Positions 3,370-40,454 of a stretch of 64,000 bases of DNA are shown here, in pieces (positions within the stretch are counted from its first letter, which is position 1; each line of letters starts with the position of its first letter). The notes under the pieces are model-generated. The model had not been told where the DNA came from. It searched no databases and saw only the letters and a list, made by a program, of their open reading frames with translations. The translations under genes were made by a program, and so were the position numbers. Origin of the DNA: an uncultured Candidatus Saccharibacteria bacterium (lineage in GTDB: Bacteria > Patescibacteriota > Saccharimonadia > Saccharimonadales > Saccharimonadaceae); NCBI GenBank assembly GCA_947166895.1, contig CAMVFY010000001.1, positions 7,522 to 71,521 of the forward strand, read 5' to 3'.

Positions 3370-4134
3370 ATGGAAATTACTCAGCGCCAAAAGGAAATTC
3401 TTTGCCAAATTATTGAGGAGTATGCTGAAACCGCTTCACCAGTAGGGAGTGTGACGTTGGCGAAGTTGTTTGGTGTGTCCTCGGCGACAATTCGGGCGGA
3501 GATGGCGCGATTAGAAGCACTAGGTTTGATTGCGCAGCCGCATACGTCGGCGGGACGGGTGCCGACAGATGCGGGGTATCGTTTTTACGTAAATACTTTA
3601 AATGGTGAAAGTGGTGGTTTTGGTAGGGATTTTTATGATGATAGTGTGACGGATGTTCGATTATTAGAAGATGGTAATTTGCGGCGTGGGATGCATGCTC
3701 TTGAGGTGAGAGTAAATGCACAGTCACGGGCTGATACGGCAATTCGGGGGGCGGTAGATGCCTTGGTGGAACTTACCGGGAACTTGGGACTTGCTACTAT
3801 TGGTGAGCAATTATACTTGGCTGGAATTTCGCGGTTATTTACGCAGCCGGAGTTTGGCGACACACGGCGGGTGCAATCTGTAGCTAAGTTATTAGATAAC
3901 TTGGAACCGTGGCTTCGAGAAGCAGCACCAGGAGAGGCTCTTAATATTTTTATTGGTCAGGAAAATCCTATCGGCAAGAATTCGGAAGTATCGTTGATTA
4001 TATCGAAATTCCGTTCGCCGTTTTCGGACCGAAGTTATATTGGCGTGCTTGGGCCAACGCGACAAAACTATTCAAGGGTAATGTCGCTGGTGAAGTATGC
4101 TGGCAATATGTTAGAGGAAATTTTGGAGAATTAA
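3370..4134 (+). CDS. hrcA: heat-inducible transcription repressor HrcA
   Basis: RQKEIL...PVGS...SSATIR.EMA.LE...QPHTSAGRVPTD.GYR.YV; GVLGPTR. Start at 3370 is 6 nt after TATAAT. Confidence 0.96.
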   Translation: MEITQRQKEILCQIIEEYAETASPVGSVTLAKLFGVSSATIRAEMARLEALGLIAQPHTSAGRVPTDAGYRFYVNTLNGESGGFGRDFYDDSVTDVRLLEDGNLRRGMHALEVRVNAQSRADTAIRGAVDALVELTGNLGLATIGEQLYLAGISRLFTQPEFGDTRRVQSVAKLLDNLEPWLREAAPGEALNIFIGQENPIGKNSEVSLIISKFRSPFSDRSYIGVLGPTRQNYSRVMSLVKYAGNMLEEILEN

Positions 4135-5302: not shown

Positions 5303-7158
5303 TTGATTAAAACATTAGTATTTGCAATGAGGCGTTCTTTGAATGCCTCTTTTGCTAATTCAGCGTTGGCGTTGTTGCCAGCCCAAGCATAGAGGGCGGG
5401 ATCCTGCAAGGCGCGAGCGAAGGAAAAGGTGACTGGCCAAGGAAAGGGTCCGTTTTTGATGATTTCAGCGAGGTTATCGGTGGCTTGCTCCGGGGTTTGA
5501 CCACCGGAGAGGAAAACGATTCCGGCGAGATCTTTGGGGACATGGTTTCTTAGGACTTCAGCAGTAGTTTGGCCGACGATTGCTGGGGAGGACTTCTCAG
5601 GTTGTTTTTTGCCTGCCATAATCATGTTAACTTTGAGGAGGCAGGCTCTTAGGTTAACGTTTTGTTTTTTCAGTTCGTCAAAAAGAACGTCGAGGACATG
5701 GGCGGTGACTTCGGCGCATTTGTCAATAGAATAATTACCATCGTAAACAATTTCAGGTTCAACAATTGGGACGATGCCGGCGGATTGGCAAGCTAGAGCG
5801 TATTTTGCAAGGATCTGACAGTTTTCTTCGATGGCGATATCGGTCGGGGTCAGAATCTCGCCGGATTCAGAGAGAGTGATATTAAAAGCGGCGCGCCATT
5901 TAGCGAAGCGGAGCCCCATTTGATAGTACTCATTCAAGCGGGGTTCAAGGCCGTCTAGCCCTTTGGTATAATTTTCGGTGGTTTCTCCGATTTCTGGACG
6001 GATTTCGTTTAGAGGGGCGAGACCTTGGTCGACTTTGATGCCAGGAATAATGCATTTACTGGTGAGATAATTGACAAAGTTTTGGCCATCGTCGGCAGTT
6101 TGGCGAGCAGTTTCGTCAAAAAGGATGACACCGTTGACGTACTTTTCTAGTTCTGGGGTGGTAAAAAAGAGATTACGATAATCACGACGATTATCATAGG
6201 TATCCTCGATGTCTAGTTGTGCGAATTTTTTCTGGATAGACCCACCAGATTCGTCAGCGGCTAGGATACCTTTACCATTTAATACCAGACTGGCTGCGAG
6301 AAGTTCGAGTTCGTTTTCGGAGCCATAAGTAGTGGCAATGTCTTGGAGCTCGGATAAGGATAGAGTGGAATTGATTTTTGCGTTTTCGACGTTGGCACGA
6401 GCCATCTTTAGGCTATCTTCGACAGAAAATCCGAGCACAAAACCGCCAAGAATGGTGGCTGACATGATTGAGTAAGCTGAAAGGTGAGTTAATACATCGA
6501 CGCGTTCGATGTTGATGTTTTCGGTGATGCTTAAGTAAGAAAGCTGAGCTTCGGTAATGTGAATGATTTTTTCAGGCGGGACAGACGCCAAAGCCGACTT
6601 TAAATCTGGTGAAGCGAGCGCGTAAGGTTTTTCCGATTGGCCCCTGTTATTTTCAAGAAAGATTAAGTTGGCAAGCGGAATAAGCTCGGAGAGATTATGT
6701 TTACTGTCGCCTCCGAGATACAAGACGAGCTTGGTTTTTGAGGAAAGTTCAAGGTAGGTTTTGATTTGCTGGATGGCAGTATGGTCCAAACTAGCGGAAC
6801 GGTCAATATAAAGATAATCGACTGATTCGGCGGGAGCAATAAAAGTAGTACTGCAAAATTCGCTCGGAGTAAAGTAAGTGACGTTATCGTTAACGAGTAA
6901 AATATAGCGATAAGTAGAAGGGGCGGTTTTGGAATTGGTATCTGAAGCGATAGCAGAGAGGTTCATTTTTTGTAAAACTTCAATGGAAACAGCTGCGCCA
7001 CCAAAATTGCTACTGCGGTTAAAAAAATGGTGTTTACTGGCATTAAAGCTGAGGTTGAGCCATTCGGTATGATCACTATCGGTTTCGAAGTTTTCTGAGC
7101 GAGTATCGAGATTTAGATAGACGTCTTTTGTAATGTTGCCCACCACTAAGATTTTCAT
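5299..7158 (-). CDS. fusion of a degenerate PfkB-like domain and class I fructose-bisphosphate aldolase
   Basis: C-terminal half has KGILAADES, PGIKVDQG, FAKWRA, IVPIVEPE, FLSGGQ, TFSFARALQ. N-terminal half has PfkB-like start (ILVVGNITKD, FGGAA). Confidence 0.88.
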   Translation of the reverse strand: MKILVVGNITKDVYLNLDTRSENFETDSDHTEWLNLSFNASKHHFFNRSSNFGGAAVSIEVLQKMNLSAIASDTNSKTAPSTYRYILLVNDNVTYFTPSEFCSTTFIAPAESVDYLYIDRSASLDHTAIQQIKTYLELSSKTKLVLYLGGDSKHNLSELIPLANLIFLENNRGQSEKPYALASPDLKSALASVPPEKIIHITEAQLSYLSITENINIERVDVLTHLSAYSIMSATILGGFVLGFSVEDSLKMARANVENAKINSTLSLSELQDIATTYGSENELELLAASLVLNGKGILAADESGGSIQKKFAQLDIEDTYDNRRDYRNLFFTTPELEKYVNGVILFDETARQTADDGQNFVNYLTSKCIIPGIKVDQGLAPLNEIRPEIGETTENYTKGLDGLEPRLNEYYQMGLRFAKWRAAFNITLSESGEILTPTDIAIEENCQILAKYALACQSAGIVPIVEPEIVYDGNYSIDKCAEVTAHVLDVLFDELKKQNVNLRACLLKVNMIMAGKKQPEKSSPAIVGQTTAEVLRNHVPKDLAGIVFLSGGQTPEQATDNLAEIIKNGPFPWPVTFSFARALQDPALYAWAGNNANAELAKEAFKERLIANTNVLIN

Positions 7159-7919
7159 AGGACTCCTAAAATACCCCTCAAGGCAAAGGCGGTGTCTTCG
7201 TGGTTTCGGACGGTGATGGTGTCGATACCCATTTGAACAATGGGGTAGTCGTTGCCACCAGGTTGAGTCATGTCGCCAAAGTATAAAATATCGTCTTTTT
7301 TGACATTTAGTTCCTCTAAGAGATGAGTCATGCCGAATGTCTTGTTCATACCTGGTATGATGGCGTTGATTGAGGTAGTGCCACCGATTTCGTAGTCAAA
7401 TTCAGGCGTAAGCTCTTTACAGCGCTTGACGATGGCTTCGCGCTTTTTGTGATCGGGGTCCCAGGCATATTTGGCTTCGGTACCGGCTTTTTGACCAAGG
7501 GCAGAAAAGGTGACTTGGGAGAGACGGTTTTCGATAATTTCATCACCTTCGGCGAGCTTGTCTTCTTCCCAAAATCCAAGTTCACGAGCGGCTTGCTCGA
7601 TAGTTTGGCTGATTTTGGCGACTTGTTCATCGGTCATAGGGTAGTTGTAGATTTGTTGCCATTCTCCATCTTCGTAGCGATAATATTGAGTACCCTGAGC
7701 AACGAAAAGATGCAGATGCGTTAGGGCTTCTGGTGTAACGCCACAATCGAGTAAACGATTAACAATTTGAATTAAAAATTGATCAAATTTTTGGCCGGAA
7801 ATGGGACAAATCTCAAAATGATTAAGGCATTTGATTAAAAGTTCGGCGATGTCGTCGGTGATGGGGGTTTTTGCGACATTTAAAGTTTGGTCAATATCAA
7901 AGGCTAAAACTTTTTTCAT
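7155..7919 (-). CDS. HAD-IIB hydrolase, eukaryote-type phosphomannomutase-like
   Basis: LAFDIDQTL, IGGTTSI, FGDMTQPGGNDY motifs. Confidence 0.85.
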   Translation of the reverse strand: MKKVLAFDIDQTLNVAKTPITDDIAELLIKCLNHFEICPISGQKFDQFLIQIVNRLLDCGVTPEALTHLHLFVAQGTQYYRYEDGEWQQIYNYPMTDEQVAKISQTIEQAARELGFWEEDKLAEGDEIIENRLSQVTFSALGQKAGTEAKYAWDPDHKKREAIVKRCKELTPEFDYEIGGTTSINAIIPGMNKTFGMTHLLEELNVKKDDILYFGDMTQPGGNDYPIVQMGIDTITVRNHEDTAFALRGILGVL

Positions 7920-8704: not shown

Positions 8705-9225
8705 ATAAAAGATATATGGATTTTGTTCCGACCAAGAAAGCTAGTGGTGAGGTTTCGACTGCGCCAAAATCATCCAGGCCGGCAGTAAGGAACGAAGTAA
8801 AGTTGCCACCGAGAATGACTGTCAAAAAGGCCACGACTAGGCCTATGCAGCCAGCGGTGAGGGCTAAGGATGAAGCCGAATTGGGTGTGATCGAGAATCT
8901 GGGAGTAGTAGAGAGCAAAACCGAAACGACACCCGCAAAGAAAGTTGATCTAAAAACCGAGGAAAAACCTAAAAAAGAAGCGAGCAAATCTTTTCAAGTT
9001 CCCCGTAATCCATTTATCAACCAAAACAAAGTGGAAAAACGGCCATTATCTAAGAATGTCTACCCAAAGAAGATAGTGGTGCCAAAAGAGGAGCCGAAGG
9101 GACCGGTGACGATTATTACAAAGCCGGAGAAAGATGCTCATGTTAGCTTGATTGTGGCGGTGATTTTGACAATTATATTAGGTGCTGCTGCTGGAACGGT
9201 GGCGTTTCTTCTTTTACCTAAGTAA
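8701..9225 (+). CDS. hypothetical protein, low complexity with C-terminal TM helix
   Basis: Start overlaps tpiA stop (ATGA); C-terminal hydrophobic helix. Confidence 0.7.
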   Translation: MNKRYMDFVPTKKASGEVSTAPKSSRPAVRNEVKLPPRMTVKKATTRPMQPAVRAKDEAELGVIENLGVVESKTETTPAKKVDLKTEEKPKKEASKSFQVPRNPFINQNKVEKRPLSKNVYPKKIVVPKEEPKGPVTIITKPEKDAHVSLIVAVILTIILGAAAGTVAFLLLPK

Positions 9226-9237
9226 GGAGTAAATAAA

Positions 9238-9546
9238 ATGACAAATAATCCATTCCTAAAACGCCTGATGAAAGCGAAAATGGAGGATGTGGCACATTCT
9301 TCGGCCTATGCAAAGGCGCAAAATCCTGGGGGGATGGGATCCGCTTCGGCTGAAAGCTTTGGGGCTAGGATGATGATGGAGCAGAACCGCAAGAATGTTA
9401 GAGGGTATGGAGATTCACGGGTAGTTAGCGATATGCGCGCAGGCGCGCCAAGGGCAAAAACCTTTGAAGGCGCGGTTGGTGCTGGTGGTACGAATACGAA
9501 GCCAGTAACGCCACCTATACGGAAAAATCCTGGGATTTCAAGATAA
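9238..9546 (+). CDS. hypothetical protein (102 aa)
   Basis: AAGGAG SD upstream. Confidence 0.65.
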   Translation: MTNNPFLKRLMKAKMEDVAHSSAYAKAQNPGGMGSASAESFGARMMMEQNRKNVRGYGDSRVVSDMRAGAPRAKTFEGAVGAGGTNTKPVTPPIRKNPGISR

Positions 9547-31352: not shown

Positions 31353-31898
31353 ATGGAAAAGATACGGAATTTTTGTATTATTGCGCATATTGATCACGGG
31401 AAGTCGACGATTGCAGATCGGATGATGGAGCTCACGGGGACGGTGGAAAAGCGCGAGATGAAAGCGCAGCTGCTCGATTCGATGGAGCTGGAGCGGGAAA
31501 AGGGGATTACGATTAAGCTCACTCCAGTGACGATGCAATGGAAGGGCTACACCTTGAACCTGATTGACACGCCGGGGCATGTGGATTTTTCGTACGAAGT
31601 GTCGCGGTCTTTGCAAGCGGTGGAGTCGGCGGTGCTAGTGGTAGATGCGACGCAAGGAATACAGGCGCAGACGCTGGCGAATGTATATCTAGCTTTGGAG
31701 CAAGATTTGATGATTATTCCGGTAATTAACAAAGTGGATTTGCCGGCAGCGGATGTTCCGAGGGTTGCGGCGCAAATTATAGATTTACTTGGATGTAAGC
31801 GGGAAGAAATTATTGAGGCGTCTGGCAAAACTGGGCTTGGTGTTGATAAGATTTTGGATGCAGTAGTGGAACGAGGCCCGGCGCCAAGAAAACCGTAA
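31353..31898 (+). CDS. lepA: elongation factor 4 (LepA), N-terminal half: complete G domain
   Basis: [56 protein letters not shown]; stops after the GPAP linker. Confidence 0.95.
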
Positions 31899-31976: not shown

Positions 31977-33545
31977 ATGAAAATGGCAATAAAAAAAGAA
32001 CCCGTGGGCGGGGATAATTACAAGGTAAATGCCGGTAAAAGTGGCATAGTGAAGCTTTTTGCGTGCGATGCGGCGGCGTTGATGCTGACGGTGCTGGTGG
32101 GGACAGTGTTAGCTAGCGTAAGAGCTGCGGCAAGCGACACGGTACAATCTAGAGCGGCGGTGACGGTGTCGTCATCTTGCCAGCTTGAGGCCGAGGTGGA
32201 CACGGCACATGAAGCGGAGGTAACCGCCAGCACCTATCGGGACAACATCGGGCAAACGACGATTACTGCGACTTGTAATGACGTGAATGGTTATGCGGTA
32301 TATGCGATTGGCTATACTAATACGGAGTTTGGTCGTAATGATATGCTGGGTGAGAATACCGGCAGGACGATTGCAACGGGTTCCGCTACATCGGGTAGCG
32401 TGTCTAACTGGGCGATGAAGCTAACTGCTGTATCGGGCGAAGTAGCGCCGACGATCGAGACGGGTTACCAGGCCTACCATGCGGTGCCAGATGAATACGA
32501 AAAGGTGGCGAGCTATGGTGGTAGTACGGTAAACTACGTGGCGGGCTCACAGTTTAGGACGACATACGCAACATATGTAGCAAGTGACCAGGCGCCAGAT
32601 ACGTACGTTGGTAAGGTAAAGTACACCTTAGTACACCCAGCGGATACAACCAATGCGCCTTGCTCAGCAACTTATACAATTGGCTATAATGCGAATGGTG
32701 GTACTGGCAGTATGGATAGCCAGACGGGATGTCTTGATACACCAATTACATTACTGCCAAACGGCTTTACGCCGAAGGCACCTCTAAACGAATACCAATT
32801 CGGTGCATGGAACACAGAGGCGGATGGTAGTGGGTACATTTACTGGCCGGGCCAAGCGGTGACGAACCTTTCTGCCCCGGATGGAATGGTGATACTTTAT
32901 GCAATGTGGATTCCGCGCTATATTCAGGACCTTACTCCTGGGGTGTGCCAGGCGATGACGGCCGAAGATCCGCTTACGATGATTGACCGTAGGGATGGTA
33001 ATGATTATACGGTCCGATACCTGCAAAACGCTTGCTGGATGACGCAAAACCTAAGACTAACCGATACGGTAAGCTCACAATACTCAAACTTTAGCACTAA
33101 CCCTACCTTTAACCCGTGTGTGGGTGACCTAACTGCAGGTAACACTTACGATGAGGCACGATGCCATGATTCGGGAAGTACTGAAACGGGTGTATGGTAT
33201 AACTACGCTTCAGCTTCGGCTGGCACCATCACAGGAAGCAGTAATAGTACAGCCGCTACTGAAGATATCTGCCCTGCTGGATGGCACTTACCAAGCTACG
33301 ATACAGCTAAGCCAGCTGGCTCCGTTAATAGTCTACTAGATTTGCCGATTAAATCTTACTTCTCCCCGGTTACCGGCGGCTACTACAGCGGCGGTAATAT
33401 CAGCAGTACCGGCATCGGTTACTGGTGGTCGTCTATCGCCCTCAATACCACGAATCGCTACGCCCTGTACTACAGTGGTAGTAGCCTGAATACCCGCAGC
33501 CTCGTCAGGAACAGCGGGTTCTATATTCGCTGCGTTAGAGAGTAG
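31977..33545 (+). CDS. DGR target protein: exported, Flg_new-like repeat plus C-terminal FISUMP-like domain
   Basis: N-terminal hydrophobic segment; YNANGGTG...WNTEADGSG; WMTQNLR, ICPAGWHLPS, GYWWSS, FYIRCVRE; 3' end is the VR. Confidence 0.92.
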   Translation: MKMAIKKEPVGGDNYKVNAGKSGIVKLFACDAAALMLTVLVGTVLASVRAAASDTVQSRAAVTVSSSCQLEAEVDTAHEAEVTASTYRDNIGQTTITATCNDVNGYAVYAIGYTNTEFGRNDMLGENTGRTIATGSATSGSVSNWAMKLTAVSGEVAPTIETGYQAYHAVPDEYEKVASYGGSTVNYVAGSQFRTTYATYVASDQAPDTYVGKVKYTLVHPADTTNAPCSATYTIGYNANGGTGSMDSQTGCLDTPITLLPNGFTPKAPLNEYQFGAWNTEADGSGYIYWPGQAVTNLSAPDGMVILYAMWIPRYIQDLTPGVCQAMTAEDPLTMIDRRDGNDYTVRYLQNACWMTQNLRLTDTVSSQYSNFSTNPTFNPCVGDLTAGNTYDEARCHDSGSTETGVWYNYASASAGTITGSSNSTAATEDICPAGWHLPSYDTAKPAGSVNSLLDLPIKSYFSPVTGGYYSGGNISSTGIGYWWSSIALNTTNRYALYYSGSSLNTRSLVRNSGFYIRCVRE

Positions 33546-33570
33546 CTAGTCCCCCTACAGGCCTCCACCC
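33353..33570 (+). repeat. DGR variable repeat (VR) including putative IMH
   Basis: 218 bp matching the reverse complement of 35626-35843 with 22 mismatches, all at TR adenines. Confidence 0.97.
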
Positions 33571-33579
33571 CAGGAGAAC

Positions 33580-33604
33580 GCGCCTCGGTCTGAGACCGAG
33601 GCGC
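33580..33604. promoter_or_regulatory. post-VR hairpin/cruciform
   Basis: gcgcctcggtc-TGA-gaccgaggcgc, perfect 11-bp stem 9 nt after the VR. Confidence 0.85.
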
Positions 33605-33630: not shown

Positions 33631-34491
33631 ATGTTGCCAAAAACTGATCTGAACAAGAAAGAAGTTAGAGAAGCGATTTCGCACAATTCGCGTGGGCGTG
33701 GCAGAAGTGATGCGGAAAAGCGTGATTCGTTTGCTAAGTATCAAGACAACAAGAAAAAGGTAATTGAGCTGGAGCGCAAAAATTTACAATATCTCATTTT
33801 GTTTCCTGCTTCGGATGTTGATGTGAATAAAAAATATCGGTTTTATAACATGGGTGGTAATTCGGCGATTATTTACGTTCACGAAATTGCTCCAAGGCTA
33901 AAGCGCAAGGCCAAGATGCGTCGCGATATGGATCCTTGTTCGGAGAAAGAGAAGTTTCACAGTGGCATCTGTTCGATTGCAAATCTTGAAGGTTTGGAAG
34001 CGGCACTTCTTACTATCGACGTGAAGCGAATGAGCGTGAAAGGTGAAATTGTAATTTTTAAGCTAAACCGCGAGTATTCAAAAGACGAAATCAAAAACAT
34101 GTTGAAGCTGGAGCAGCAGAGGCTCGATTCTTTGAACGAACTAATTTACTCAAAAGTACTTTATCCGGATGTACACAAAAAAATCATTGATTTGAAACGT
34201 TCGATTCCGGCGAAGGTTAAAAACATGGAGAAAACTTATCGTGAAGTGGTGGGTATGGAGATGATAAAGTCTTTGATGACGCTTGTAAAAACATATTCGC
34301 AGGTTGCCCATGGTAATGATTCTCCAGAAAACGGTGGTAATGTAATGCTTGCTGCGTGCGATAATCTGCTCGCGGAAGTGTCGATGATGAATGAGCTTCG
34401 GGTGGGGGAAGTTGATGCGTGTATTCGGATAGCAAGTACAATAGTTGAACTAAAAAGAGCAATAAAGGGGAGGCTAAACAAGATACAATGA
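33631..34491 (+). CDS. DGR accessory protein: C-terminal Avd-like four-helix bundle, N-terminal possible MutS-I-like domain
   Basis: Directly upstream of RT (ATGA overlap); C-terminal about 110 aa helical with P..VK.M.K.YR...G pattern. Confidence 0.65.
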   Translation: MLPKTDLNKKEVREAISHNSRGRGRSDAEKRDSFAKYQDNKKKVIELERKNLQYLILFPASDVDVNKKYRFYNMGGNSAIIYVHEIAPRLKRKAKMRRDMDPCSEKEKFHSGICSIANLEGLEAALLTIDVKRMSVKGEIVIFKLNREYSKDEIKNMLKLEQQRLDSLNELIYSKVLYPDVHKKIIDLKRSIPAKVKNMEKTYREVVGMEMIKSLMTLVKTYSQVAHGNDSPENGGNVMLAACDNLLAEVSMMNELRVGEVDACIRIASTIVELKRAIKGRLNKIQ

Positions 34492-35624
34492 AGGTAAGTG
34501 ATGGGAACAACCGAGAATGGCTGCATGACGTGGAGAATCGGTTGTTGTTTGAACTATACATAGCTTACTTACAGGCGAGGGCTGGTGGAAAGCGTGGAAC
34601 TTTTGATGAACATAAGTTTGAGGTGAATGAGTTTGAGAATTTAATAAACTTGCGAGATAGCTTGATTGATAAAACTTATCGTCCGTCGAGAGGGACGGCA
34701 CACGTGATTTTTAAGCCTGTGATTAGAGAAATATTTGCGGCGTCTTTTCGCGATAGGGTGGTGCATCATTTTATTTACAATACGGTTTGTGATTGGTGGG
34801 ATAGACATTTTATTTATGATTCATATTCGTGTCGGGAAAATAAGGGAACGGATTTTGGAATTAAGAGGTTAAGCAGAATGTTGCAATCGGTAACGGATAA
34901 TTATAAAAAAGAAGCTTGGGTAATAAAACTGGATGTGCAAGGATATTTTATGAGTTTGCCACGTAAGCAGCTGTATCGGCGAGCAATATGGGGGCTTGAT
35001 AGACAATTTGAAAATAATCATAATTGGAAATACGAACTAGTAAAGTTCCTGTGGGCACAAACAATATTTGATGATCCGTGTGCTGGGGTGCGAAAGAAAG
35101 GCTGGCCTGAGGATTGGAAAGATTTGCCGGCTTCGAAAAGTTTGTTCACGCAATTGCCGGGGGTCGGGATTGTAATTGGTAATTTGACTTCACAATTGCT
35201 GTCGAACATCTATTTGGACCAGCTGGATAGATATATTAAGTATGAGTTAGGCTGGAAGTATTACGGTAGATATGTGGATGATTTTTTTATCATTGTAACT
35301 GAAGAACAGTTGCCGCGAGCTTTAGAGGACGTAAAGAGGATAGAGGCATTTTTGGGGAGACTAGGACTAACGTTGCATCCTAATAAACGCAAAGTACAGC
35401 CGGCTCGGAATGGAGTGGAGTTTTTGGGGGCAGTTGTATATCCTGGTAGAGTACATCCTGGGAAACGAATAGTAAAAAATGCTGGGATGGCGTTTTCTGA
35501 AGTTGTTGAGGGGGTGAAAGATGTTGAGAGTGTCGTGTCTTATATGGGGCACATGAAACACTATAATACCCAGATGTTAATGACAAAATTGTTTGACAAA
35601 GCTGGGTGGGACTATAGGAGTTAA
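34488..35624 (+). CDS. DGR reverse transcriptase
   Basis: REIFAASFRDRVVHH, DSYSCR..KGT, KLDVQGYF, IGNLTSQLLSNIYL, RYVDD, FLG; no group II intron X/En domains. Confidence 0.96.
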   Translation: MKVSDGNNREWLHDVENRLLFELYIAYLQARAGGKRGTFDEHKFEVNEFENLINLRDSLIDKTYRPSRGTAHVIFKPVIREIFAASFRDRVVHHFIYNTVCDWWDRHFIYDSYSCRENKGTDFGIKRLSRMLQSVTDNYKKEAWVIKLDVQGYFMSLPRKQLYRRAIWGLDRQFENNHNWKYELVKFLWAQTIFDDPCAGVRKKGWPEDWKDLPASKSLFTQLPGVGIVIGNLTSQLLSNIYLDQLDRYIKYELGWKYYGRYVDDFFIIVTEEQLPRALEDVKRIEAFLGRLGLTLHPNKRKVQPARNGVEFLGAVVYPGRVHPGKRIVKNAGMAFSEVVEGVKDVESVVSYMGHMKHYNTQMLMTKLFDKAGWDYRS

Positions 35625-35625
35625 T

Positions 35626-35843
35626 GGGTGGAGTCCTGTAGGGGGACTAGCTACTCTCTAACGCAGCGAATATAGTTCCCGTTGTTCCTGTTGTTGTTGT
35701 TGGTATTCAGGCTACTACCATTGTAGTTCAGGTTGTAGCGATTCGTGGTATTGTTGGCGATAGACGACCACCAGTAACCGTTGCCGGTATTGTTGATATT
35801 ACCGCCGTTGTAGTTGCCGCCGGTAACCGGGGAGAAGTAAGAT
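35626..35843 (-). ncRNA. DGR template repeat (TR), antisense to the RT operon
   Basis: Minus strand has 20 AAY codons in the VR frame; a minus-strand TATAAT lies at 36082-36077. Confidence 0.95.
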
Positions 35844-36117
35844 GCTTGGAGGACGCACTACTTCTTACAACAAATACACCGAAAGGAACTTCAGCCTAAT
35901 ACCCATTAGGAACGGAACGAAGAAGAAGCAACTTAAAACCTACTTGGTTCGTAAGTCAGGTAGGCGCTATGACCTTCACTCATCACGAAGGGTGCTTCTG
36001 GCCTCCACCCTTACTGCGACCTTTTAGCGACACCGTGATCTACTGCCAGGTCGGAGGGATATTCCCCCATGTTGTTATTATATTATGTTATAATTATCTT
36101 AGTAATGAGAGAGGTGT

Positions 36118-36963
36118 ATGATGCGAAATGATATGTTTTTAATTACGCCGATGAACCAAAAGGTGTATCTAAATCGGGGGGAAGAATACCGTGGGTCGAT
36201 TCGGGTGGTGAACCCGGCGGAAGCAACAAGAGATTTTCACTACCGGGTGGACGTGGCACCATACGGTGTAGTGGGCGAGGGGTATGATGCGGACCTTACG
36301 AGCGAGTCGCAATGGACGCAGATAGTGGATTGGATTACGATTGAAAATAACGAAGGCGTGCTGGCGCCAAACGAAGTGCGGGATGTGGAGTTTGTAATAA
36401 AAGTGCCTGAGGATGCGATAGTGGGGGCGCAAACGGCAGCACTAGTAGTGAGGCAGGAAGATGACGAGAAGGCTATCGATGGGGTGAAGGTAGAGAACGT
36501 TTTTGAGATGGCGAGTATTATTTATGGCCAGGTGCTTGGAATTGAGGAGCACGATGCGTCGATACTAGCGATGGATGTTCCGGGGTTTTCGACAACGCCG
36601 GACGTAGCGGTGACGGCGAGTTTTGACAATCATGGGAACGTGTTTGAAGAGGCAGAAACCAAGATTGTTGTAAAAAATGCACTGAGCGGTGAAGTGATAC
36701 TTCCGACTAGTGAGGCTTCTGGTGAATATACCGAGATAGTAATGCCCGACACTACTCGTAAAGTGACGCGTAAGATAGACGATTTGCCGATGCTGGGGGT
36801 GGTACATGTTGAATACCAAGTGAAATATAACGGTGAAGAAATGATGATGGAGAGGGATTTGGTGATTTGCCCGATTTGGTTTATGGTGATGATGGCGGTA
36901 GTAGTAGGGATGATCATAACGACGATTGTAATGCTGATAAAAAAATATCATAAAAAAGCTTGA
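36118..36963 (+). CDS. DUF916/WxL-interacting-like membrane-anchored protein
   Basis: ITP...YL..G..Y.GSI.V.N beta-sandwich start, FDNHGNV, C-terminal IPIW-like segment plus TM plus KK. Confidence 0.55.
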   Translation: MMRNDMFLITPMNQKVYLNRGEEYRGSIRVVNPAEATRDFHYRVDVAPYGVVGEGYDADLTSESQWTQIVDWITIENNEGVLAPNEVRDVEFVIKVPEDAIVGAQTAALVVRQEDDEKAIDGVKVENVFEMASIIYGQVLGIEEHDASILAMDVPGFSTTPDVAVTASFDNHGNVFEEAETKIVVKNALSGEVILPTSEASGEYTEIVMPDTTRKVTRKIDDLPMLGVVHVEYQVKYNGEEMMMERDLVICPIWFMVMMAVVVGMIITTIVMLIKKYHKKA

Positions 36964-37067
36964 CATTTTATAGCATTAGCGTTATATTGAGGTTACAAAA
37001 GGTCATACAAAAATAAAAAGGTCATACAAACATACCAAGCTTTGGTGTTTTGTGCCAAGGAAAACAC

Positions 37068-39182
37068 ATGAAAAACACAATAAAACAAAAACGAGTAATC
37101 GCTGGTGCGGTGTTTTTTGGTATTGTTGCGGTAGTTGCTAGTATCGCAGGCTCTGAGAAAAGTTATGCTGAGGGTATTTTGTGTAACCCTAACGCAAGGA
37201 CGATAGAAAGCGCAGTGTGTATTCAGGATGTGAACCAGTCGGTGATTAACAGTATGGAAGAAGGAAATGAATACTATTTGATCGATTCGCGTGATGAGGA
37301 AGAGTACATCGTGGGGAAGCTAGCGGATGGGAAGGTATGGATGCTCGACAATTTGCGCCTAGGTGGTACAAGCGAGATACGCTTGACATCGAGAGATACG
37401 AATATAGATGAAAGTGTGAACGGTGGGGAGTTTATTTTGCCTTCTGCAGACGACTGGGCGGATAGTTATGAGGAGCCATATTTGAACGACTATTATAAGT
37501 GGGATTGGAGCATTGATGAGGATTGGCTAATTGGCAATTATTACAACTACTGTGCGGCGTCGGCGGGGACCTATTGTGGCGAAGAGGGGGAAGAATTTGG
37601 TGACGCTAAGTATGATATTTGTCCGGCGGGATGGAGAATGCCAACTGGTGGATATGGTGGTGAGTACGAAACTTTGTATAATGCGTATGGGGCTGAGCTT
37701 GAACCTTTTGGCATGGCGTTTCACCTGACGCTTTCGGGAAGATTTTATGATTATGGTGCGGGTTATATTGATGAAGACGGGTATTTTTGGAGTTCATCTT
37801 ACCGAGATGGAGCTAGAATGAGATATTTGCTCGTGAGCCGTAACGATGGCGTGGCCGCAACATCCGGATTTAATCGTGATCGGGGGTATTCGATGAGGTG
37901 TGTGGCTAAGGGTAATGAGGCGCCGGAGCCTGAACCAGAAGCGGTGGTGTGTAATGCGAGTGCTAAGAATATTGACGAGGCATCTTGTATGCAAGATATG
38001 AATCCGCTAGTAAAGCACAGTATGTCGGTGGGGCAGCGCTATACCTTGGTGGATAAGCGTGATGGCGAAAAATACACTGTGGCTAAACTTAGAGATGGCA
38101 ATGTGTGGCTGCTAGATAACTTGAGGCTGGGCAAGAATGAGCCGATTACCTTGACTGCCGAGGATACTAACCTTGTAGGTGGTTCGTTTGTTTTGCCGGC
38201 TGGCGGAAATTGGGAAAATACTTATGTTGAGCCGAAGCTGAGCATATCGAATATTTACGAGAAAGTGGAAGCTGTGGTGCCACTAGACGTAAATCCTGAC
38301 ATTAACGTTATTAAAAGTAATTTACTTAAGGGAAGTGCGAATATTGTGAACGGGCTAACGATTGGTAATTATTATAATTACTGTGCGGCGTCGGCGGGAA
38401 CTGTGTGTGATGAGAGAAATACGAATTTTGCGAGTGCGGAATCGGACATTTGTCCGGCTGGTTGGAGAATGCCAACCGATGCGGCGGATGGGGAGTTTGC
38501 CAGATTGTATAGCCTTTACGATAATAATTATGATAGTTTTATGGGGGCGCTTAGATTACCTTTAAGTGGGCGGTTTTATAATGGCCATGTAGGGTACCTG
38601 AATTATTCGGGGTACACTTGGTCATCGACTTATCGAGACGAGGAGAGAATGAGGATTGCGACGGTATCTAGAGGTAGCCTGGATTTGGTGAGTAGTCACT
38701 ATCGGGATCGAGGATTTTCGATGAGATGCGTGGCGAAGGTGGGGGATTATGGAAGTGGTGAATACGAATGGGTGTACGGGAATGTGTATAGCGATGAGGA
38801 TGATAACAGGTTGGTCTTAAAAATTGACTTTGACATTGATGCGTTAATTCGGGTTGAAGTTGATGGCAACGAACTTGATGTTAGTAAGTATGTTTTGGAA
38901 GAAGGAAGTACCATAATTAATTTTAAGGATGAGTATTTAGACACATTAGCGGATGGAACTTACGCGGTAAAGGCAGTGTACAAGGATGGGTTAGAGATTA
39001 ATACGGATTTTATCGTGATAAATTCGGTGGTGGTGCCAAATACTGGAACGATTGCTTCTGGTGAAATTAACTCTAAAAATGACCTTACGGGGATTGCGGT
39101 GATGGGCGGCGTGTTAGCTACGGTTACCTCACTTGGCGGATTTGTTGTTTATAAAAGATACCACAGAAAAATGTCCTTTTAG
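37068..39182 (+). CDS. surface protein with two FISUMP-like domains and VPNTG anchor
   Basis: Twice WMLDNLRLG, GNYYNYCAASAG, ICPAGWRMPT, SMRCVAK; VPNTG followed by TM and basic tail; TTGACA-17-TATATT promoter. Confidence 0.82.
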   Translation: MKNTIKQKRVIAGAVFFGIVAVVASIAGSEKSYAEGILCNPNARTIESAVCIQDVNQSVINSMEEGNEYYLIDSRDEEEYIVGKLADGKVWMLDNLRLGGTSEIRLTSRDTNIDESVNGGEFILPSADDWADSYEEPYLNDYYKWDWSIDEDWLIGNYYNYCAASAGTYCGEEGEEFGDAKYDICPAGWRMPTGGYGGEYETLYNAYGAELEPFGMAFHLTLSGRFYDYGAGYIDEDGYFWSSSYRDGARMRYLLVSRNDGVAATSGFNRDRGYSMRCVAKGNEAPEPEPEAVVCNASAKNIDEASCMQDMNPLVKHSMSVGQRYTLVDKRDGEKYTVAKLRDGNVWLLDNLRLGKNEPITLTAEDTNLVGGSFVLPAGGNWENTYVEPKLSISNIYEKVEAVVPLDVNPDINVIKSNLLKGSANIVNGLTIGNYYNYCAASAGTVCDERNTNFASAESDICPAGWRMPTDAADGEFARLYSLYDNNYDSFMGALRLPLSGRFYNGHVGYLNYSGYTWSSTYRDEERMRIATVSRGSLDLVSSHYRDRGFSMRCVAKVGDYGSGEYEWVYGNVYSDEDDNRLVLKIDFDIDALIRVEVDGNELDVSKYVLEEGSTIINFKDEYLDTLADGTYAVKAVYKDGLEINTDFIVINSVVVPNTGTIASGEINSKNDLTGIAVMGGVLATVTSLGGFVVYKRYHRKMSF

Positions 39183-39227: not shown

Positions 39228-40454
39228 ATGAATGGTACTCGGGCTTTGATATTTGATTCGTATTTTGATGATTACCGTGGGGTGGTACTATACGTTAGGA
39301 TTTTTGAGGGGAAAATTCCGAAGGGGGCGGAAATTTTGATGATGGCAGCAGGGACAAAGGGGTTAGCGCTTGAAGTGGGGGTGTTAACTCCCAAAATGTC
39401 ACCGCGAGACAAACTTGACACTGGTGAAATAGGCTATATTGTAACAAACCTTAAAACAACGCGTGAGGCAAAGGTGGGCGACACGGTTACTTTGGTGCAT
39501 GAGCCAGCTAGTGAGGCTTTGCCTGGATATAAAAACGTGTTGCCCTTTGTGTACGCGGGGTTTTTTCCTGTTTCGAACGACCAATATAAGGAGCTAAAGG
39601 AAGCGATAGAAAAACTGAGTTTGTCGGACTCGGCCTTGCGATACGAACCGGAGAACTCGCCGGTTTTAGGATTTGGGCTACGAATTGGGTTTTTGGGGCT
39701 TCTTCACATGGATATTATACGAGAGAGGTTGGAACGGGAGTTCGGACTAGATTTGATTGTAACAAACCCGTCAACGAATTATGAAGTAGTAATGGCGAAC
39801 GGTGAGGTTCGTGAAATTAAATCAGCAGCGGATTTGCCGGACGTGTCGGAGATTTCTGAAATACGAGAGCCTTGGGTAAAGGGCGAAATAATTTTACCAA
39901 AATCAATGATTGGAAACGTGCTGAATTTAATCAACGAGAAGCGTGGGCATCAGACGAATTTGTCGTATATTGAGACCAAAGCGGTGATAGATTTTGAGGC
40001 GCCGATGGCAAATTTGCTGACGGATTTTTATGACCAGTTAAAATCGGTAACTTCGGGGTATGCATCCTTTAATTATGAGATTAATGGTTATCGGGCGGGA
40101 GATTTGGTGCGAGTGGATTTTTTGGTGGCAGGGCACAAGATGGATGCTCTCTCGGTGATGGCGCATCGAAGTGAGGCGGATGCAATTGGGCGAGAAGTGA
40201 CAAAAAAGTTGAAAGAGGTAATTCCACGTCAAAATTACGAGGTGGCTCTCCAGGCGGCGATTGGGGCGCGAGTGATAGCGCGTGAAACGATTGGTGCGTA
40301 CCGAAAGGACGTGACAGTAAAAATTCACACTGGGGATCGCGATCGTAAGGCAAAACTGCTAGACAAGCAGAAGCGTGGTAAGGCGCGGATGAAGAGGTTT
40401 GGTAAGATCGACATCCCATCGGAAGCCTTTACGGTGATGCTAAAACGTGATTAA
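39228..40454 (+). CDS. lepA: elongation factor 4 (LepA), C-terminal half: domains II, III, V and CTD
   Basis: ALIFDSYFDDYRGVV, GEIGYI, GLRIGFLGLLHMDII.ERLEREF, YASFNYE, KKLKEVIPRQ, YRKDV, KAKLLDKQKRGKARMK. Confidence 0.95.
   Translation: MNGTRALIFDSYFDDYRGVVLYVRIFEGKIPKGAEILMMAAGTKGLALEVGVLTPKMSPRDKLDTGEIGYIVTNLKTTREAKVGDTVTLVHEPASEALPGYKNVLPFVYAGFFPVSNDQYKELKEAIEKLSLSDSALRYEPENSPVLGFGLRIGFLGLLHMDIIRERLEREFGLDLIVTNPSTNYEVVMANGEVREIKSAADLPDVSEISEIREPWVKGEIILPKSMIGNVLNLINEKRGHQTNLSYIETKAVIDFEAPMANLLTDFYDQLKSVTSGYASFNYEINGYRAGDLVRVDFLVAGHKMDALSVMAHRSEADAIGREVTKKLKEVIPRQNYEVALQAAIGARVIARETIGAYRKDVTVKIHTGDRDRKAKLLDKQKRGKARMKRFGKIDIPSEAFTVMLKRD

Follow-up and report, generated by a model that had tools for sequence, protein, structure and literature searches.

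Here we describe the accessory gene of a diversity-generating retroelement (DGR) in a 64,000-nucleotide stretch of DNA from an uncultured Candidatus Saccharibacteria bacterium (NCBI GenBank assembly GCA_947166895.1, contig CAMVFY010000001.1, positions 7,522 to 71,521 of the forward strand). This whole stretch is referred to as the window, and positions are counted from its first letter. The gene product is probably an Avd-type accessory subunit of a chromosomal DGR, carried by a Saccharibacterium of the ruminant gut, and has an additional N-terminal domain (N-domain) that is specific to the lineage and that we propose to be a second nucleic-acid-binding surface. Structure prediction and structural comparison identify the C-terminal part of about 110 amino acids (aa) as the four-helix bundle of Avd. 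The N-domain that precedes it is modelled as a confidently folded, basic domain and is the best conserved part of the protein. The cassette to which the gene belongs has mutated its target at positions where the template has adenine.

The DGR cassette and its accessory gene

The features of the cassette and of the accessory protein are listed below. Open reading frame is abbreviated as ORF and the per-residue confidence of AlphaFold2 models, the predicted local distance difference test, as pLDDT.

31977..33545, + strand: DGR target gene, 522 aa, encoding a secreted protein of the FISUMP/Fib_succ_major type (Pfam Fib_succ_major, TIGR02145); its 3' end holds the variable region
33353..33570, + strand: variable region (VR), found as an inverted repeat with the template region; last approximately 190 nt of the target gene and 25 nt past its stop
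33580..33604, + strand: GC-rich hairpin with an 11-bp stem and a 3-nt loop, seen in the sequence 10 nt 3' of VR and just 5' of the accessory gene
33631..34491, + strand: DGR accessory gene encoding a two-domain 'long Avd' (286-aa ORF, homologues, kept gene order, AlphaFold2 model)
33631..33708, + strand: basic tail modelled with low confidence, residues 1-26, with R-G-R-G-R at 21-25 (pLDDT <50 at residues 1-4 and 16-23)
33709..34146, + strand: predicted N-terminal alpha/beta domain, residues 27-172 (separate model with pLDDT 91.5 and predicted template modelling score, pTM, 0.85)
34159..34488, + strand: Avd-like four-helix bundle, residues 177-286 (helices of the AlphaFold2 model, Foldseek, profile matches to short Avd-sized ORFs)
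34488..35624, + strand: DGR reverse transcriptase (RT), 378 aa (RVT_1, E = 4e-13), starting inside the accessory stop
35626..35843, - strand: template region (TR), found as an inverted repeat with VR; the accessory and RT genes are on the other strand

The window element is a true DGR, because every TR/VR difference replaces a template adenine and an RVT_1-type RT overlaps the accessory gene through ATGA. TR and VR form an inverted repeat of 218 nt with 22 differences, all of which (22/22) show A in TR and another base in VR, and all 22 sit at codon position 1 or 2. The RT also matches group II intron RT models in part, and contains IGNLTSQ, a motif typical of DGR RTs. The same layout, comprising a target gene with VR, an accessory gene, an RT gene and an inverted TR, was found in the related loci L001 and L003/L004, where 25 of 26 and 17 of 18 TR/VR differences, respectively, were A-specific. 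Gene order and TR inversion were also the same in locus L035, where the accessory protein shares only 23% identity with that of the window, and the order target-accessory-RT held in every locus long enough to judge. The inverted TRs of the relatives lie at 9143-9360 (L001), 3492-3711 (L003) and 7005-7207 (L035). Since TR is downstream of the RT gene and on the opposite strand, transcription of the template RNA must converge with that of the accessory-RT message. The 3' side of TR is antisense to the last RT codons, a layout common to four loci down to 23% accessory identity. VRs of contigs with identical accessory proteins showed no variation and were identical.

The accessory gene is preceded by a ribosome-binding site, AAGAGGA, 8 nt 5' of its ATG, and its stop overlaps the RT start (ATGA at 34488-34491); its translation is coupled to that of the DGR RT. 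The protein does contain the strings to which the preliminary description, made from the sequence, had drawn attention, namely YLILF (residues 53-57), FYNMGGNSAIIY (71-82) and IAPRL (86-90). Its double length was likewise borne out, 286 aa as compared to 107-122 residues in the solved chains of BPP-1 Avd and 120-138 aa in short Avd-like ORFs of Patescibacteria. AlphaFold2 modelled the whole protein with a mean pLDDT of 87.6 from an alignment of 43 relatives. The 286-aa ORF is real, neither a chance ORF nor one with a miscalled start, because it has homologues in 65 clusters and at least 465 representatives, the best of which mostly match across both halves. The clustered homologues are 37-62% identical, all are unnamed or annotated as 'hypothetical protein', and the named sources are Candidatus Saccharibacteria. 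The representatives, at the 50% clustering level, came from an exhaustive profile search and included 368 with E ≤ 1e-10; the best 150 of the 465 mostly gave one continuous match over both halves and were mostly 250-340 aa long.

The accessory protein is basic throughout, with isoelectric points (pI) of 9.52 (whole protein), 9.17 (Avd part), 9.4 (N-domain) and 10.9 (tail). The family means are 9.35 for the whole protein and 9.27 ± 0.68 for the N-domain.

An Avd bundle preceded by a conserved domain

The C-terminal approximately 110 aa are, on the evidence of the predicted structure, an Avd four-helix bundle, with helices at residues 179-197, 201-226, 232-255 and 261-285. Foldseek matched this part at probability 1.0 to BPP-1 Avd (4dwl) and to the Avd chains 8ub7, 8ubb, 8ube and 8ub8 of the Protein Data Bank (PDB), and at the same probability to the related S23/IVP bundles 2gsc and 2rld. 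The superpositions had target-normalised template modelling (TM) scores of 0.79-0.85, mostly 0.8-0.85, and root-mean-square deviations of mostly 1.7-2.9 Å over approximately 107 columns. A profile of the broad family (A3) reached 120-138-aa ORFs in other Patescibacteria with E values of 1e-8 to 7e-6, matching them over profile positions of approximately 151-269 only. One of these, the 131-aa ORF of locus L120 (the only short Avd-like ORF whose neighbourhood was checked), was matched by the A3 profile at E = 1e-8, itself matched bAvd at 6e-8 and 23S_rRNA_IVP at 3e-5, and adjoins an RVT_1 gene. Among 91 relatives of the window protein, matches to Avd models were sporadic and weak (bAvd in one, the PHROG 'Avd protein of DGR' in two and NF033474 in one). 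The preliminary description had taken the last approximately 110 aa to be Avd-like, and both the Foldseek matches to solved Avd structures and the profile matches to short Avd-sized ORFs agree with it. The pI of 9.5 of the whole protein is the value reported for Avd (mean 9.5 ± 0.7; PMC5758913).

The N-domain, modelled separately as residues 24-176, is predicted to consist of a long helix, a b-b-a-b-b-a-b-b core and a long linker helix that runs into the bundle. Across the broad family, identity to the window protein is 32% in the N-domain core as compared to 20% in the Avd part, and six of the seven columns that are at least 90% identical within the two domains fall in the N-domain core. Residues K41, E48, N51, S78, D99, D101 and G112 are near-invariant in the 91-sequence family, and residue 71 is aromatic in all 91 sequences (W in 68, F in 18, Y in 5). 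In the tail, all 43 sequences of the Saccharibacteria subfamily have R23-G24-R25, whereas these residues vary in the broad family; the R-G-R-G-R motif is confined to the subfamily.

No relative of the N-domain was recognised. Pfam, NCBIfam, PHROGs and PADLOC, searched with the window protein and with 43 or 91 of its relatives, gave no match to this domain, and the window protein as a whole was recognised by no curated library. PDB sequence searches with two family profiles returned only noise of the coiled-coil type, and Foldseek of the N-domain model against PDB gave a top probability of 0.28, with no credible match. A tblastn search of 50,697 phage records gave no match either. A search made with just the N-domain retrieved family members or fragments and nothing else, with no stand-alone N-domain among them; the N-domain was found only fused to the Avd part.

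Among 401 sampled reference genomes of the class, covering 186 genera, the two-domain form was confined to the genus of the window. This is a genus of ruminant-gut Saccharibacteria, in which the two-domain form is present in 22 listed genomes, often in two copies; named genome matches include metagenome-assembled genomes from goat and roe-deer jejunum and from other uncultured Saccharibacteria. At least two species of the genus carry two divergent Avd copies within a genome of 0.6-0.7 Mb. In the window's own genome (0.66 Mb; G000), contig 6 encodes a second long accessory protein of 328 aa, 27% identical to the first and directly 5' of a second RT.

Second DGR (locus L136): accessory gene at 112-1098, RT gene at 1095-2399 (434 aa) and TR at about 2650-2880, the TR being direct and approximately 250 nt after the RT gene

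The contig that holds this locus begins at the end of the VR of the second DGR. In several of the genomes from this genus, a contig end is found no more than about 200-1100 nt from many copies of the accessory gene, which hints at frequent breaks of short-read assemblies caused by the TR/VR repeat of these DGRs.

Proposed function and alternative readings

BPP-1 Avd is a homopentameric barrel that contacts the N-terminal extension of the RT and a stem-loop of the spacer RNA, positions the template:primer duplex and is required for cDNA synthesis (10.1101/2023.10.23.563531). By analogy, and as the most economical reading, the C-terminal bundles of the window protein would do the work of Avd, forming a barrel to which RT and template RNA bind and without which no cDNA would be made. 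From this barrel, the long helix at 151-172 may hold one N-domain per protomer at a distance, where the N-domains, together with the Arg/Gly tail, would add a second nucleic-acid-binding surface. Such a surface might capture or position the DGR RNA, which is here transcribed from the opposite strand, or the cDNA or target DNA.

Several points weigh against this proposal. We infer both the pentamer and a binding N-domain by analogy, and E48 and D99-x-D101, which are invariant, may belong to a catalytic or metal site instead of a binding surface. The window protein itself matched none of the Avd models PF22296, PF05635 and NF033474, and the L120 ORF that bridges it to Avd scored 33.5 bits with bAvd, under the Pfam curated cut-off of 40 bits. 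The idea that the N-domain is tied to an inverted TR, and hence to a template RNA produced apart from the avd-RT message, was also tested and rejected: it fits four loci, but the second DGR of the same genome combines a long accessory protein with a direct TR downstream of the RT gene. Capturing an RNA encoded in trans is therefore an insufficient rationale for the N-domain.

Among the alternatives, the one that survives best is that proposed in the preliminary description, in which Avd is joined to a homologue of MutS domain I that binds the cDNA/VR heteroduplex with its many mismatches, protecting it from repair or guiding its resolution. We regard this fusion as unlikely. Descent of the N-domain from MutS domain I, taken by itself, is doubtful, if somewhat less so, and the N-domain cannot be counted as a member of the MutS_I family. 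Of the earlier claim, the Avd half stood, on the Foldseek matches and the profile bridge, and the MutS half found no firm support: PF01624 (MutS_I) gave no match in 43 + 91 = 134 family members, and no MutS was present among the PDB sequence matches, even at E ≤ 10. Structure prediction, which had been put forward as a check, gave an N-domain model with no MutS chain in the top 50 Foldseek matches from PDB, a database that holds many MutS, MSH6 and MSH3 chains. Foldseek against BFVD did place two giant-virus MutS proteins among the top 25 matches (ranks 8 and 24), but at probabilities of only 0.08 and 0.11.

We then have the profile comparison, for which a MutS_I alignment was built from 27 MutS genes of other Patescibacteria and compared by hhalign. 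The narrow family alignment gave a probability of 1.2%, while the diverse alignments gave 7-10% with P values of 0.003-0.005 over 73-79 collinear columns, which is below every significance threshold. The register set YLILFPAS against CILFFRMG and, after an 8-residue insert, FYNMGGNSAIIYVHEI against FYEMFGDDAVIASKLL, followed by strand 4, helix C and strand 5. It agrees with the predicted secondary structure and repeats the register of the preliminary description, with FYNMGGNSA opposite FYEMFGDDA. The order of elements in the N-domain, a-b-b-a-b-b-a-b-b, is also that of MutS domain I, and this counts in favour of the relationship. In shuffle controls, none of 120 block-8 shuffles reached the real score and one of 120 aligned at least 70 columns, but five of 120 block-12 shuffles reached the real score. 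The signal also shifts with the match-column rule: with -M 50, the real score was 17.1 as compared to a null mean of approximately 16. More diverse templates brought no stronger signal. When the MutS_I profile was enlarged with other bacterial (prophage-edge) MutS genes and a gut-phage set of eight MutS_I-like sequences, several of them divergent and one an 81-aa stand-alone gene, P was 0.007-0.1 and the probability 0.6-5.5%.

At the level of residues, the agreement is partial. MutS domain I (PF01624; residues 2-115 of E. coli MutS) resembles the N-domain in size, in the order of helices and strands and in the aromatic residue at Phe36, the stacking residue, which aligns with the always-aromatic residue 71. 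It differs in that its invariants GDFYE, R55 and G67-x-P69 are unconserved in the accessory family and in that no structural match was found by Foldseek. Glu38 aligns with residue 73, which is K in 77, R in 4 and N in 3 of the 91 sequences and never E, and the family invariants E48, N51, D99 and D101 have no MutS counterpart. Phe-X-Glu is the mismatch-reading motif of MutS (PMC3848065). Since its Glu is absent here, canonical mismatch recognition is unlikely, even given descent from MutS domain I. Within the phylum, 40 of 201 genomes had MutS_I, whereas the window's genome, 20 relatives and all class members sampled had none. With no MutS in the host class, and so no mismatch repair to shield from, shielding of the heteroduplex from mismatch repair is unlikely. 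The handling or shielding of mismatches that the preliminary description had suggested is thus weakened by the replacement of Glu by Lys or Asn, by the N-domain's own invariants and by the lack of a host MutS.

The same description was correct that MutS-like accessory ORFs occur beside some DGRs: these are the MSL (MutS-like) genes (PMC5758913), and three RTs with MutS_I-like tails have been reported as well (PMC5758913), so that MutS-type modules are documented in DGRs. The MSL proteins are near-neutral and separate from avd, while the accessory protein of the window is basic and fused.

Divergent MutS_I-like domains were also seen in records of gut phages or mobile elements, at 2543-2788 in L128, 3884-4360 in L129 and 3048-5309 in L130. 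The first is ORF064 of Bacteroides phage B124-14, an 81-aa stand-alone MutS_I-like gene; the second is the C-terminal part of a 158-aa ORF and the third the C-terminus of a 753-aa protein. They lack Phe-X-Glu (having, for example, GESCELY or GEVYRLY), and the annotated or listed ORFs near the three included no evident RT.

Two further readings give the N-domain an active role. In the broader of these, which we consider improbable, the N-domain is an unrecognised DGR module for catalysis or another specific processing of nucleic acids, built on the near-invariant K41, E48, N51, S78 and D99-x-D101 and arranged five-fold on the Avd barrel, that performs a retrohoming step for which a protein has never been identified, be it nicking, primer generation or cDNA hand-off. 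Slightly less probable still is the more specific reading of the N-domain as a metal-dependent nuclease or phosphotransferase, acting through E48 and D99-x-D101 and supplying a nicking or RNA-processing step that canonical DGRs lack. Consistent with an enzyme, the invariant polar residues K41, E48, N51, S78, D99 and D101 concentrate in the N-domain, this domain is conserved above the Avd part, and the ORF list and family scans revealed no endonuclease encoded in the cassette. However, no structure or model of a nuclease, of Toprim or of the PD-(D/E)xK type resembled the N-domain, and the sole enzyme-like hints were Cas2 matches of single family members without Foldseek support.

Toprim (E plus DxD) and PD-(D/E)xK nuclease folds had been considered because E48 and D99-x-D101 are invariant; neither was among the Foldseek matches, and both were rejected. 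The position of E48, in the helix before strand 1, also misfits the motif placement of these two folds. Cas2/Cas2b, matched by single members at E of approximately 1e-3, was discounted because Foldseek against PDB shows no Cas2.

Finally, an annotation artefact, with a small upstream ORF and a normal avd gene read as one or with the true start inside the ORF, is very improbable: the Avd-like part by itself does have the size of a normal Avd and one relative (G328) carries the halves as separate frames of 144 and 159 aa, but the frame is continuous and free of stops in the window and in nearly all relatives (252-328 aa), the confidently predicted helix 151-172 joins both halves, the ribosome-binding site precedes the first ATG and conservation is highest in the N-terminal part.

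Genomic surroundings and comparison with known systems

The DGR cassette and two neighbouring genes, approximately 7.3 kb in all, sit inside lepA (EF4). The two parts of lepA are separate intact ORFs, one of 181 aa (31353-31898) with the GTPase domain and one of 408 aa (39228-40454) with domains II-V and LepA_C, so that the gene is split near the end of the GTP-binding domain. The lepA frame is continuous, with 588-648 aa, in 18 of 20 relatives; one relative (G009) also has a short frame of 415 aa. Between TR and the second lepA half lie a gene for a 281-aa protein with a C-terminal membrane anchor (36118-36963) and a gene for a 710-aa protein (37050-39182), which has two FISUMP-like repeats resembling the domain of the DGR target. 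The repeats of the latter are only 61% identical to the VR region at the nucleotide level.

Equivalents of the hairpin downstream of VR were found 10-20 nt after VR in L001, L003 and L035 as well as in the window, that is, in four loci. Its position recalls the target-recognition hairpin of BPP-1; it could equally be a terminator. The sequence GGCCTCCACCC at 36000-36010, in non-coding DNA beyond TR, is the same as the end of VR at 33560-33570 (compare 35626-35636). In a minus-strand RNA, this copy of GGCCTCCACCC could pair with the 3' end of TR with one mismatch. A complementary CTCCACC occurs at a similar distance in L001, and not in L003 or L035.

As compared to BPP-1 Avd (PF22296/PF05635; 4DWL, 8UB7), the accessory protein shares a four-helix bundle of approximately 110 aa, a gene that abuts the RT gene, a pI of approximately 9.5 and a cassette with adenine mutagenesis. 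It differs in being twice as long, with an N-domain of approximately 145 aa and an Arg/Gly tail before the bundle, the N-domain being the better conserved, in lacking an Avd sequence-model match, and in its TR, which in the window lies 3' of the RT gene on the opposite strand. TR and RT are reported to occupy different strands in some DGRs, and avd genes have been described as uniform in length (PMC5758913). The short Avd genes of Patescibacteria, such as that of L120 (DGRs of the candidate phyla radiation with the TR-(avd)-RT 'B3' architecture), are homologous to the C-terminal domain, but have 120-138 aa without an N-domain, and the L120 gene is divergent from its RT.

The MSL class of accessory proteins (architecture D) comprises proteins of 112-283 aa with a pI of 7.2 ± 1.7, always beside a separate avd gene, which gave strong-to-moderate MutS predictions in Phyre2 (PMC5758913). 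Like MSL, the N-domain is an extra DGR accessory module that would work alongside Avd, in an overlapping size range and with a weak MutS-I-like alignment. In contrast to MSL, it is fused to Avd, is basic (pI 9.4) and received no MutS prediction from Pfam, the PDB profile searches or Foldseek. Between the target and RT genes of the window there is no further avd-like gene, only the one fused ORF.

We found no description of a two-domain Avd in the literature searched. What is new here is an Avd with an additional, dominant N-domain, which, among the reference genomes sampled, is limited to a single genus of Saccharibacteria from the ruminant gut. If the link to MutS domain I were true, it would tie together the MSL genes, the MutS_I tails on RTs and the accessory fusion, and would argue for a DNA-reading module of the MutS-I type as a recurrent part of DGRs, also where the host has no mismatch repair. 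Among the essential DGR proteins, Avd is understood least, and here a whole lineage of active-looking DGRs has added to it a domain without a recognisable relative. That the added domain is the most conserved part of the protein points to a DGR function which, in the BPP-1 model, is supplied elsewhere or is unneeded. The N-domain therefore offers a compact, testable handle on what the modules associated with Avd do.

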